A stretch of 53,818 nt of DNA. It comes from Psammoneis japonica. Taxonomy: Eukaryota. The translations under genes were made by a program, and so were the position numbers. Position 1 is the stretch's first letter; every line of letters starts with the position of its first letter. Below, piece after piece: positions 2,946-6,503 of the stretch. The stretch lies in contig QPGO01000214.1 in NCBI GenBank assembly GCA_008632985.1, forward strand, positions 62,001 through 115,818, read 5' to 3'. The notes under the pieces were generated by a model. That model searched no databases. It saw nothing but the letters and a program-made list of their open reading frames with translations, and was not told the DNA's origin.

Positions 2946-4013
2946 ACGATGGCGTGCCATGCACCTCAGGCCAGACAACGTCTTCTATCCCCACAACGCC
3001 TCTACAGTGAGGAACATGGCGTGACAGGAAAATGTGAGGGAGACGAGGACTCATTTCGAGTGCATGTTGATGGCGCCGGTTCGCTCAAGGTCGCGTGCGC
3101 GTCAAATCACTTGCCGGTTGCGTCTGTGACCAACGGGGTGGCACCCGCTCCTCAAGTCAATCTGTCTGTGTTGCACGAGGACAACCAGAACCTCACCACC
3201 GGTCAGAAGCTCCTTCAAGAATGGCACTTCAGGTTTGGTCACCTGAACATGCCACGCATCCAAGGCCTGCTTCGGGCCGAACCTTTTCTCCGACCCAAAT
3301 TCAAGCATGCTTCGCGTTGCGACATTCCGCGGTGCGAGGTGTGCGAACATGCCAAAGGACATCGCCGAACCCTCAAGTCTGCCAAACATGCGGCTACTCC
3401 AGAGCGTGAGGGTGCTCTTCGAGCCGAGCATCTACGTCCAGGCCAAGCCGTCAGCGTGGATCACTTCGAATCCCGTCTCCTCGGCCGAACCTACGACTCC
3501 TGCGGGAAGGCCTCGTCCCAGCAATGCAAAGGAGGCTGTGTTTTTGTGGATCATGCCTCCGGTTACCTGCATGTTGAACACCAACTTGGTTTCTCTGCTG
3601 TGGAAACGGTGCGAGCGAAGCAAGCATTTGAAAAGCACGCGATGGACCACGGCATCATCATCCAAGAATTTCTTGCCGATTCTGGCGCTTTCAAGGCCAA
3701 TGCTTTTGTGCAACACATGCGACAGCATGAACAACGTCTGCGTTTTTGCGGAACCAACGCCCACCATCAGAACGGCGTCGCAGAACGCAGCATTTGCTCC
3801 GTCTCCAACATGGCGAGAGCGATGCTTCTCCACGCATCCATCCGTTGGAAGGGGGGCACAGACAGCTCTTTGTGGCCCATGGCCGTGTCTTGTGCCATGC
3901 ACATTCATGACGTGACTCCCAACGCTCAAGGCTGCTGCCCCGTGGACATTTTTACCGGCACTGCTGTGCCCCGACATCATCTTCGCGACATCCACGTCTG
4001 GGGCTGTCCGGTC

Positions 4014-4259
4014 NNNNNNNNNNNNNNNNNNNNNNNNNNNNNNNNNNNNNNNNNNNNNNNNNNNNNNNNNNNNNNNNNNNNNNNNNNNNNNNNNNNNNNN
4101 NNNNNNNNNNNNNNNNNNNNNNNNNNNNNNNNNNNNNNNNNNNNNNNNNNNNNNNNNNNNNNNNNNNNNNNNNNNNNNNNNNNNNNNNNNNNNNNNNNNN
4201 NNNNNNNNNNNNNNNNNNNNNNNNNNNNNNNNNNNNNNNNNNNNNNNNNNNNNNNNNNN
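4014..4259. other. assembly gap (N run)
   Basis: Run of N. Confidence 1.
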
Positions 4260-4400
4260 AGTGTCCAGATGCCCCTCGAAAAAGACCAGTCGATTCATCT
4301 TCAAGACGATTGGTTGACTCCGGAAGAACTTCAACGTAAACAGAGGGAGCTGGCACGGGCTTCCCGTGTGCGCAGCACCTTCGAACCACCTCCTCCGGAC

Positions 4401-5191
4401 NNNNNNNNNNNNNNNNNNNNNNNNNNNNNNNNNNNNNNNNNNNNNNNNNNNNNNNNNNNNNNNNNNNNNNNNNNNNNNNNNNNNNNNNNNNNNNNNNNNN
4501 NNNNNNNNNNNNNNNNNNNNNNNNNNNNNNNNNNNNNNNNNNNNNNNNNNNNNNNNNNNNNNNNNNNNNNNNNNNNNNNNNNNNNNNNNNNNNNNNNNNN
4601 NNNNNNNNNNNNNNNNNNNNNNNNNNNNNNNNNNNNNNNNNNNNNNNNNNNNNNNNNNNNNNNNNNNNNNNNNNNNNNNNNNNNNNNNNNNNNNNNNNNN
4701 NNNNNNNNNNNNNNNNNNNNNNNNNNNNNNNNNNNNNNNNNNNNNNNNNNNNNNNNNNNNNNNNNNNNNNNNNNNNNNNNNNNNNNNNNNNNNNNNNNNN
4801 NNNNNNNNNNNNNNNNNNNNNNNNNNNNNNNNNNNNNNNNNNNNNNNNNNNNNNNNNNNNNNNNNNNNNNNNNNNNNNNNNNNNNNNNNNNNNNNNNNNN
4901 NNNNNNNNNNNNNNNNNNNNNNNNNNNNNNNNNNNNNNNNNNNNNNNNNNNNNNNNNNNNNNNNNNNNNNNNNNNNNNNNNNNNNNNNNNNNNNNNNNNN
5001 NNNNNNNNNNNNNNNNNNNNNNNNNNNNNNNNNNNNNNNNNNNNNNNNNNNNNNNNNNNNNNNNNNNNNNNNNNNNNNNNNNNNNNNNNNNNNNNNNNNN
5101 NNNNNNNNNNNNNNNNNNNNNNNNNNNNNNNNNNNNNNNNNNNNNNNNNNNNNNNNNNNNNNNNNNNNNNNNNNNNNNNNNNNNNNNNNNN
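4401..5191. other. assembly gap (N run)
   Basis: Run of N. Confidence 1.
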
Positions 5192-6503
5192 TGTAGAGCC
5201 TCCCAAGGGTTTCCAGCCAAAATCGGGCGCCGATCTGGCACCAAAATTGTTGAAAGGCCCACACGGCCTGCGCCAGTCTCCCAAGTGCTTCTGTGAAAAG
5301 CTGAGGGACGGATTGCTCGAAAGAGGATGGATTCAATCCGCCATTGACCCTTGTCTTTATTTCAAAAAGGGCATGTTGTGTGTGGCACATGTTGATGACA
5401 CCGTGTTCGCCGGCGCATCGGCCCAAGCCTTGGAAGCAGAGATTGCCAAGTTGGGCATTTCCAACGATGAGCAACGCCATGTCTTTGATCTACGTGATGA
5501 AGGCGAAGTCGGTAACTTTCTAGGTGTCAAGATTCAAAAGCTCGAAGACGGCCGATTCCTCCTGACCCAACCCGGCCTAATTGAGAAAGTTCTCCGCACC
5601 GCACAGATGACTGGGTGCAACGGCGCACCCACTCCTGCCTTGCCTGCTCCTGCTGGCAGCGATGCCGACGGGCCACCGTTCAACGAGCCTTATGACTACC
5701 GTTCCGTGGTCGGCATGCTGATGCATCTAGCGTCCAACAGCCGCCCGGACATTGCTTGCGCGACCCATCAAGTCGCACGGTTCTCCTGCGCACCCAAGGC
5801 CTCCCACGCTGCGGCTGTCAAGCGCATTCTTCGTCACCTGAAGGATGCGGCCGACAAAGGACTCATCCTAACTCCAACCGCCGATCAACGACTCGACTGC
5901 CATGTTGATGCTGATTTCGCGGGACTCTTCAGTGTTGAAGATGGACAAGATCCCACGTCTGTTGAGTCACGCACGGGACGCGTCATTTATTGTGCTGGAT
6001 GTCCGATTGTCTGGGTGTCCAAGTTGCAGACCCTCGTCGCACTCTCTACCATGGAAGCCGAGTATGTCGCCCTCTCCCAAGCGATGCGTGATCTCATCCC
6101 CCTTCGCGAGATCGTGAAGGAAATCAACGCGCTCGTTTTCGGACAGCCGGACAGACAGACCGACATTTCGACACATTCGAAGGCTTTCCGACACGCCAAC
6201 GACGGAACTGAGGATTCTCCCATTGACTCTACTAACCTCCCAGCATCCGTTGTGTACGAAGATAATGCTGCCTGCCTCCAATTCGCCCGCATGCCAAAAT
6301 TATCCCCACGAACCAAGCACATCGGCATTCCCTGCCATTGGTTTCGTACTAAAGTTGAGGCTTTGGAGATCAAAATTGAGCCTGTGAGCTCAGCTGCACA
6401 GCTTGCTGACCAGTTTACTAAAGGATTGACTGTTGATCTATTCCGTTCTGGTCGCAAAGCCCTCATGGGCTGGTGACTGATAGTTCTCCTTCTCTTTTCG
6501 GTT

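Follow-up and report, generated by a model that had tools for sequence, protein, structure and literature searches.

TpA loss in a stop-free Copia-like pol gene and in a neighbouring repeat block of Psammoneis japonica

We analysed a window of 53,818 nucleotides of Psammoneis japonica DNA (assembly GCA_008632985.1, contig QPGO01000214.1, positions 62,001 to 115,818, forward strand), which holds a Copia-type long terminal repeat (LTR) retrotransposon at its left end, host genes between 7 and 26.6 kb and, from 26.9 kb onwards, a block of repeats almost without the dinucleotide TpA (TA). The original prediction, made for the pol gene of the retrotransposon, was that it had been killed codon by codon through loss of TA, with no stop codons. 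Our data confirm this observation and support its interpretation. We propose, with a probability of roughly 0.6, that the Copia copy was hit by in-place, domain-targeted hypermutation of TpA to CpA or TpG, of the kind that Mettrop et al. describe for the alga Bigelowiella natans (bioRxiv 10.64898/2026.01.13.699255).

A Copia-like element with open but damaged frames

Positions 1-6476 carry two long open reading frames (ORFs) on the forward strand. The first (1..3024) extends past the window start and was recognised as gag-protease because the N-terminal regions of polyproteins from relatives matched it in tblastn. The second (2934..6476) is pol, in which an integrase-homologous region (2943-4013) lies upstream of reverse transcriptase (RT) and RNase H (5193-6473), the domain order of the Copia type. 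Runs of N occupy 4014-4259 and 4401-5191 (1037 bp), and all results for pol refer to its readable parts. Pfam recognised RVT_2 (PF07727) in pol with an E-value of 1.8e-12 (47.8 bits against a cut-off of 31.6) and, upstream of RT, gag_pre-integrs (E 3.4e-5); rve was not detected in pol at E<=0.01. A protein homologue search with the RT/RNase H region returned 570 homologues, most of them carrying PF07727. The nearest proteins, among 5.8 billion, were at most 62% identical and mostly metagenomic, the one named match being from Fragilaria crotonensis. With its nearest named protein in F. crotonensis, the host of the element is a diatom, and the guess of a diatom CoDi element made in the original prediction agrees with these diatom relatives. 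By its sequence the element is a CoDi-like member of the Ty1/Copia LTR retrotransposons, yet a dead copy. It is the single copy of its family in the window, where a tblastn search with 120 relatives found no other.

Several features expected of an autonomous copy fail in this element: the catalytic motif of RT is HVDD instead of YVDD, the polyprotein is interrupted by a frameshift, and 12 of 14 conserved tyrosines are lost. The RT encoded here would probably be inactive. The frameshift, from frame 1 to frame 3, falls at 2943..2946 (+) between the protease and integrase parts, where five relatives with a single gag-pol ORF read ...ELVVR|SMAYYVP... unbroken. A 1-nt indel in the DNA itself or a fault of the assembly would each explain it. 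The claim that pol contains no stop codons holds for its readable part, but the frameshift means that the element does not form one open frame.

Tyrosine loss at conserved columns

We aligned the window with 113 relatives over RT/RNase H and with 62 relatives over integrase, taking columns as conserved at a cut-off of 70%. In RT/RNase H, seven of nine conserved Tyr columns were changed, as opposed to 18 of 173 other conserved columns; in integrase all five conserved Tyr columns were changed, as opposed to 8 of 114 others. Combined, 12 of 14 conserved tyrosines were replaced (11 of them by His, Cys or Arg) versus 26 of 287 other conserved residues (p = 2.2e-10). When each relative was left out and scored in turn for Tyr>His/Cys/Arg, 96 of the 113 RT/RNase H relatives had no such change, 16 had one and 1 had two, compared with seven in the window; for integrase the corresponding numbers were 38, 21 and 3 of 62 relatives, compared with four. 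At the nine RT/RNase H Tyr positions, 80 environmental DNA relatives together read Y 472, F 42, H 21 and C 1 times, and the window reads HHYHHHRYC. Total loss at conserved RT/RNase H columns was ordinary by comparison, with 25 of 182 columns changed in the window, where the relatives averaged 16.7 and reached at most 39. Since tyrosine loss is extreme while overall loss is not, the damage is specific and does not reflect general decay.

Every residue change listed in the original prediction that lies outside the N runs is present in the sequence, and at most of the listed positions none of the 113 relatives carries the same His, Cys, Pro or Ala. The catalytic motif HVDD (CAT GTT GAT GAC, 5388..5399, +) replaces YVDD at a column that is Y in 88% of the 113 relatives and H in none. 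Just upstream, at 5238..5264 (+), lies a cluster of V>A (GCA), L>P (CCA), L>P (CCA) and Y>H (CAC), all four being T>C before A; it comprises LVLKL->LAPKL (GCA CCA, 5238-5243) and LYG->PHG (CCA CAC, 5259-5264), where L and Y are each 100% conserved in the relatives. MYL->MHL (5724), RYLK->RHLK (5835), PYHW->PCHW (6333) and YKGG->CKGG (3525) were likewise found, as was the change proposed as AYYVP->ACHAP, with MACHAP at 2949-2966 where the relatives have MAYYVP. YVDAD->HVDAD is present at 5901, although 7 of the 113 relatives also have H there. Two further listed changes carry a qualification. RTGYV->RTGRV is present as CGC at 5979, but TAC>CGC requires a second, non-TpA step; and for IAYA->IACA the column is less than 70% conserved in the 113-relative set, although most of the 30 closest relatives have Y there.

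TpA context of the substitutions and the absence of stops

To place these changes in their dinucleotide context, the 25 deviations at conserved RT/RNase H columns were classified automatically. This assigned 14 to TA>CA/TG/CG, 1 to other transitions and 10 to non-transition or multi-step changes; cases in which the TA straddles two codons, for example t|AAG>t|GAG, were counted as TA loss. Identical classification of the DNA of 48 environmental relatives gave 43 TA-loss-type changes among 1083 (4%; no single relative exceeded 30%), a share that differs from that of the window at p = 5e-13. No TA-gain-type change was found at conserved RT/RNase H columns. The substitutions were accordingly not independent of context, with 14 TA-loss-type changes to 1 other transition, the test using outgroup polarity and not observed mutation events. 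Both T>C and A>G occur, as Y>H and Y>C respectively, which bears out the claim that both strands are hit. Along pol the two kinds did not cluster significantly into strand runs (8 runs against 11 expected, by hand count). Polarised by outgroups, the changes at conserved columns show a TA-specific transition signature that affects both strands.

Codon enumeration showed that T>C or A>G turns no sense codon into a stop, while C>T and G>A make stops from CAA, CAG, CGA and TGG. The lack of stops in pol follows from a T>C/A>G spectrum that cannot make them, and is hence not evidence of selection. Because TAA and TAG are destroyed in all frames, the same spectrum leaves long spurious ORFs in all six. 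Stops were present in the matched part of 37 of the 80 environmental relatives, many of which have a low observed/expected ratio (o/e) of CG; this looks like ordinary CpG-type decay. The environmental Copia relatives L016, L020, L062, L059/L060 and L070/L071 have CG o/e of 0.04-0.24, normal TA and, with the exception of L062, mostly stops. Such low-CG relatives are a useful contrast to the window copy.

TA composition of the element, its host and its relatives

Over positions 1-6476 the Copia element contains 61 TA in 5439 readable nucleotides, a TA o/e of 0.22 (0.20 in the gag-protease ORF, where Tyr makes up 0.9% of residues, and 0.26 in pol), compared with 0.45-0.8 per kb in the host genes at 7-26.6 kb. 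In 1-kb windows of the element TpA lay between 0.13 and 0.28 and CpA+TpG between 0.92 and 1.45. CG o/e was nearly normal (0.90) while TA was lost, so that CpG decay and TpA erasure are separable. By codon class (positions 1-2, 2-3 and 3-1), TA o/e was 0.17, 0.34 and 0.22 in the window element, compared with 0.36, 0.57 and 0.57 in host ORFs and 0.51, 0.59 and 0.67 in 14 intact relatives pooled. The codons ATA and GTA occur at 0 and 0.6 per 1000 in the element versus 8.4 and 12.2 in host ORFs, and relative to the host its usage of His and Cys is doubled and that of Tyr halved.

Among 81 sequences compared, the window RT/RNase H had the lowest TA o/e (0.35) and the highest GC content (0.546). Overall TA o/e is by itself not decisive, given that a GC-rich intact relative (L025) has a value of 0.40. 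By codon class, the ratio in L025 is 0.33 (2-3) and 0.31 (3-1), but at Tyr positions it is normal (0.55), and this relative keeps all nine RT/RNase H tyrosines.

A block almost without TA

The second TA-poor part of the window is a block at 26900..53818, made up of repeats, arrays of a 23-bp satellite and decayed element ORFs. Its left edge is sharp and lies ~300 bp past the end of a MIF4G/MA3 host gene. TA o/e per kb is 0.00-0.22, except for 0.38 at 33-34 kb, which contains a TA-normal insert; CA and TG o/e are 1.28-2.04 (mostly 1.5-2.0) and CG is 0.15-0.96. Outside three small islands, 72 TA remain. The block is far more extreme in its TA loss than the Copia element, and its near-saturated TpA signature covers unrelated elements.

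One of these is represented by a 393-amino-acid (aa) ORF without Tyr at 51458..52636 (-), which belongs to a diatom-centred family that has no Pfam model and is unrelated to Copia. A full HMMER search gave 767 representative homologues (best E 4e-73), whereas a word-based homologue search gave no match. Eight of its relatives had no credible Pfam family, and their ESM Atlas label was only 'hypothetical protein'. All six conserved Tyr columns are lost in the window ORF (to C, C, H, C, H and E), although total loss at conserved columns (17 of 76) is that of the relatives (mean 16.7). An ORF that is Tyr-erased yet otherwise conserved like its relatives indicates that TA erasure is fast relative to ordinary decay. 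Two shorter ORFs of this unnamed family, at 41827-42582 (-) and 50282-50962 (-), are mutual paralogues and likewise have almost no Tyr. The three ORFs probably encode proteins of a non-Copia mobile element.

The copy-with-copy comparison suggested along with the original prediction was made on a pair of sequences that resemble miniature inverted-repeat transposable elements (MITEs). A TA-normal insert with inverted ends at 32972..33362 (+) has 29 TA in 391 bp, and its paralogue at 35225..35615 (-), 73% identical, is TA-erased with 5 TA. The 29 TA sites of the insert read TG 14, CA 7, TA 3 and other 5 times in the paralogue, so that 21 of the 29 became TG or CA. Of the 107 mismatches, 38 are T>C/A>G, and these fall on 22 of the 58 bases that belong to a TA and on 16 of the 167 A/T bases that do not; the polarity of this comparison is borrowed from the outgroup-polarised Copia and 393-aa ORF cases. 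The insert itself looks like a young MITE-like insertion. It is one of the normal-TA islands within the block (32972-33362, 36749-36930 and 39250-39390), and older MITE-like copies or fragments lie at 35225-35615, 36556-36627, 37964-38061, 44892-44989 and 46354-46451.

Arrays of the 23-bp satellite (unit GAAAACAAACATGTCGTTTCAAG) occupy 41253-41731, 43010-44896, 45087-45181, 46451-46598, 49261-49891 and 53358-53818, the array at 43010-44896 consisting of two halves in opposite orientation. They flank paralogous unique segments, 41584-42398 and 46451-47264 being 93% alike and 42057-43016 and 50439-51400 78% alike; arrays and segments together suggest a composite repeated element. Comparison of the paralogous segments gave CG in both copies at 6 places, one copy decayed at 46 and CA versus TG at 32. 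The TA loss of the block predates these segment duplications.

Extended sequence preference

The survival of NTAN sites in the Copia element was expressed as TA sites per kb in the window over TA sites per kb in 15 intact relatives. ATAT, ATAC and ATAG are gone, and GTAT (0.06) and CTAT (0.13) are nearly so. Survival is 0.74 for CTAC and about 0.4 for each of CTAA, TTAG and CTAG. In the block, TTAA accounts for 27 of the 72 residual TA sites, compared with 32 of 823 in host DNA, and A preceding a surviving TA is nearly absent. One disfavoured flanking base would leave the palindrome TTAA resistant on both strands. Such an extended preference would point to an enzyme over a chemical bias.

The LTR-like end, the age of the insertion and sibling copies

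In run X1, contig words of pol have a depth of 700-4300, which rises to 6450-7490 over 6462-6842 and drops to 40-100 just past 6843; loose contig ends fall at 6512, 6706 and 6800. Word depth and contig ends define an LTR-like, highly repeated 3' end of the insertion at 6512..6799 (+). The purine run ggttgagagggagag (6501..6515, +) resembles a polypurine tract just 5' of the repeated 3' end, and from its sequence may act as one. This LTR-like end finishes at the point from which a contig lacking the insertion starts to match; the 5' end of the element falls beyond the window. With 16 TA (o/e 0.73) the LTR-like end is not depleted, and surviving TAs grow denser over the last 300 bp of pol. A domain boundary at the host DNA, editing during retrotransposition or later LTR exchange would each explain why this end was spared.

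A contig from the same sample (X2) matches the host DNA of the window solely from 6800 rightwards and is unrelated before that point, which suggests a haplotype without this Copia insertion in the same sample and hence a young insertion. Same-sample contigs differ from the host flank (6800, 7321-7400 and 8225-8345) by many substitutions and small indels. The sample seems to contain a second, diverged haplotype or strain that does not carry this Copia insertion. From the B. natans figures we computed a rate of about 1e-5 per TpA per generation, at which a young insertion could still be heavily edited.

The Copia family is multi-copy in run X1, with 484 contig pieces at >=80% likeness. Over 5192-9000, contigs differed from the window at 231 places, including A>G 52, T>C 42, C>T 32 and G>A 34. 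Independent erasure in each sibling copy would fit these differences. The TA loss may be either private to the window copy or common to a subfamily that was still mobilised in trans.

Comparison with known hypermutation systems

In mutation-accumulation lines of B. natans, two hypermutable regions collected 231 mutations, of which 230 were A>G or T>C and lay without exception at TpA; the regions are an integrated giant virus and a virophage. The B. natans genome contains 124 TpA-poor, CpA/TpG-rich clusters, with RT and DDE domains enriched in TpA-poor coding sequences, and the authors propose, without proof, an ADAT2-like adenine deaminase. The cluster cut-offs, which are specific to that genome (5%, 1-kb windows), are at most 0.43 for Rho(TpA) and at least 1.52 for Rho(CpA+TpG), and a search of the available preprint text found no mention of diatoms (bioRxiv 10.64898/2026.01.13.699255). 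By windows of this type the block passes on both counts (27 windows, TA 0.00-0.38, CA and TG mostly 1.5-2.0). The Copia element passes the TpA cut-off (0.13-0.28) but not that for CpA+TpG (0.92-1.45).

As far as the available text of that preprint goes, the two cases agree in having only, or in the window almost only, A>G and T>C, restricted to TpA and on both strands, which in the window is seen indirectly through outgroup polarity. They also agree in multi-kb, TpA-poor and CpA/TpG-rich clusters with sharp limits, in a rise of GC, and in affecting foreign or mobile DNA. They differ in host, B. natans being a chlorarachniophyte (Rhizaria) and the window host, by its relatives, a diatom, and in evidence, since the B. 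natans mutations were watched arising in lines and the window shows an accumulated footprint only. The main B. natans target kept 3.3% TpA, whereas the block is close to zero. The main targets there are giant-virus and virophage inserts; in the window they are the LTR retrotransposon, a MITE-like sequence, satellites and the ORF of an unnamed element. The extended motif seen in the window (ATA/TAT most sensitive, TTAA and CTAC surviving) has no counterpart in the available text on B. natans. We found no report of TpA-specific hypermutation in diatoms in the open-access and bioRxiv literature searched.

Repeat-induced point mutation (RIP) of ascomycete fungi likewise inactivates repeated or mobile DNA in place by dinucleotide-specific transitions, in distinct blocks beside normal genes. 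However, RIP converts CpA to TpA by C>T, so that TA is enriched, GC lowered and many stops made, whereas in the window TA is erased, GC is raised and stops are impossible; moreover, the most repeated part, the LTR-like end, is spared. RIP was rejected for the window because the opposite was seen, with TA o/e of 0.0-0.28 and Tyr codons lost, not gained. The vertebrate APOBEC3 enzymes share with the window deaminase-style hypermutation of retroelements, a dinucleotide preference and the relative sparing of LTRs. They act by C>U on minus-strand cDNA, leaving G>A on one strand and many stops, unlike the A:T>G:C changes on both strands found here, which extend to non-retro sequences. APOBEC-type cDNA editing was rejected, as there was no TA-gain change, 1 other transition at conserved columns and no stop in readable pol.

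The adenosine-to-inosine (A>I) editing of RNA by ADAR resembles the window in that inosine is read as G, U is preferred before the edited A and repeat-derived sequences are targeted. ADAR is an RNA editor of a metazoan family, and alone would leave only transcribed-strand A>G in a retro-copy. CpG methylation decay similarly gives an excess of TG and CA in repeats and is clearly active in the block, as its CG o/e of 0.15-0.96 shows, but does not remove TA and does create stops.

Proposed mechanism and alternatives

These data allow us to propose how the Copia copy may have been inactivated. A process working on DNA in place, across defined domains of repeat or foreign DNA, would convert TpA to CpA or TpG, T>C and A>G being one event viewed from either strand. 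It would rewrite TA-containing codons (TAY for Tyr; NTA of Leu, Ile and Val) together with TAs that span codon boundaries. Tyr would become His or Cys, Leu would become Pro and Val would become Ala, while Ile, Asn, Lys and Thr after T would become Val, Asp, Glu and Ala. In this way YVDD would have turned into HVDD, the frame staying open while the protein was destroyed. The agent would be an enzyme, by analogy with B. natans most likely a DNA adenine deaminase of the TadA/ADAT kind, and its targeting would follow a chromatin domain, which would account for the sharp edges and for the sparing of the LTR-like end next to host DNA.

Several observations weigh against this proposal. The polarity of the substitutions rests on amino-acid outgroups, the closest usable relatives being at most 63% identical in protein, and 1037 bp of pol are N. 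Some of the shortage of TA at synonymous positions may belong by nature to GC-rich family members such as L025. The LTR-like end is the most repeated part and yet TA-normal, where a repeat-triggered process should have hit it. The excess of C>T/G>A to be expected if only the window copy had lost TA is not seen in the contig differences. The paralogous segments of the block show no sign of TA loss after their duplication, CpG decay alone explaining their differences. No deaminase domain was found by Pfam among 99 window ORFs (6.5-53.8 kb). Finally, 31-mers sampled from 26001-36000 were present at a share of 0.77 in run X1, 0.04 in X2 and 0.00 in X3, with no RNA run listed as carrying this stretch, and run X1 may be the assembly's own source, so that its support would not be independent.

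An unlikely but credible alternative is that thymine, not adenine, is the base attacked. In this case the T of TpA would be modified or oxidised in silenced DNA, as 5-hydroxymethyluracil (5hmU) or in a base-J-like manner, and would mispair with G to give T>C on either strand. TA is palindromic, T>C on one strand being A>G on the other, and the sequence cannot tell which base was attacked. Dinoflagellate 5hmU is moreover enriched at TpA and TpC. An adenine deaminase agrees better with the natural target of TadA/ADAT enzymes, the A that follows U33 in tRNA, which matches a TpA preference. The sole study of the TpA signature, as far as its available text shows, also favours an ADAT2-like adenine deaminase, although this is itself unproven.

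Also unlikely is TA-specific editing during retrotransposition, on the RNA genome and/or single-stranded cDNA by an APOBEC- or ADAR-like logic, such that the copy integrated already edited. The spared LTR-like end would fit, as retroviral LTRs are largely spared under APOBEC3G, and so would the signs of a young insertion in the contig that matches from 6800 rightwards and the multi-copy state of the family. However, T>C and A>G are similar in number on the coding strand, which would require editing of the minus strand as well as of the RNA or plus strand, and the density of surviving TAs increases towards the 3' end of pol, opposite to the retroviral gradient. Satellites, a MITE-like copy and a non-Copia ORF are erased in the same way, over 27 kb and within sharp regional limits, and the B. 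natans events were, by the available account, seen in integrated DNA.

We regard as improbable a sequencing or assembly artefact, in which TpA modification in silenced repeats is miscalled as CA or TG and the element is really intact. In its favour, pol is free of stops, as an intact element would be, the frameshift at 2943-2946 may have arisen as an indel during assembly, and the region is found in a single public run, possibly the source of the assembly, whose library type is not on record. Set against this, the exact 31-mer contigs of X1 contain 0.77 of the sampled words of 26001-36000, and noisy reads would not be expected to give the word depth of about 40-100 seen along most of the unique flank (6843-7858). 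The sharp borders, the spared 391-bp insert inside the block and the extended sequence preference also speak against miscalling.

Least probable, and very much so, is a low TA content native to a functional subfamily through selection against UpA in element RNA, codon bias or GC-biased gene conversion: the low TA of intact L025 (0.40 overall, 0.31-0.33 in synonymous classes) and the top GC rank of the window copy (0.546) lend it some support, but it would not replace 12 of 14 conserved tyrosines, including that of YVDD, at the family's usual level of overall loss (25 of 182 versus a mean of 16.7), L025 retains all nine Tyr positions, non-TA transitions are almost absent (1 versus 14) and the non-coding satellites of the block are TA-free too, so that context specificity and Tyr loss rule out GC-biased gene conversion and UpA avoidance as full explanations.

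Significance of probable TpA hypermutation in a diatom

To our knowledge, dinucleotide-targeted hypermutation directed against mobile DNA is firmly known only in fungi (RIP) and vertebrates (APOBEC). Its TpA-restricted, A:T>G:C version has so far been described once, in the 2026 chlorarachniophyte preprint. The window looks like a second, independent occurrence of TpA hypermutation, in another eukaryotic supergroup than that of B. natans. A footprint in a diatom, partial on Copia and nearly complete across 27 kb with unrelated elements, would mean that the process is not peculiar to one alga. It raises a testable question in major primary producers of the ocean, namely which enzyme edits TpA and how silent domains are chosen, and the extended motif (ATA/TAT sensitive; TTAA and CTAC surviving) can be used against candidate enzymes.

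More tentatively, at what we judge to be a little short of even odds, we suggest a diatom genome defence that acts as a reverse RIP. Here domain-targeted DNA editing, probably by an adenine deaminase preferring (A)TA/TA(T), would erase TpA from transposons and silenced DNA in evolutionarily short times and inactivate proteins without stops. Such a system would be the same as, or convergent with, that of B. natans, and would then be widespread in SAR (stramenopiles, alveolates and Rhizaria). For annotation, long ORFs in TpA-erased regions should be read as by-products of the mutation spectrum and not as evidence of function. A natural TpA-specific DNA adenine editor, if true, would be of interest to builders of base editors.

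Other features of the window

Pfam was run on 99 ORFs of at least 120 aa between 6.5 and 53.8 kb and gave nothing credible in the block. Two weak, sub-threshold matches were all it gave there: one ORF resembled GATase_7, and the translated 23-bp satellite gave a spurious match to an ice-binding repeat model. The host genes at 7-26.6 kb were identified by Pfam as ADP-ribosyltransferase-like, CP12-domain, hydrolase, amine oxidase and MIF4G/MA3. One host ORF in this region of normal composition (10163-11164, +), for which no link to TpA erasure was found, matches ADPrib_exo_Tox with an E-value of 7e-12 and ART with an E-value of 3e-11.

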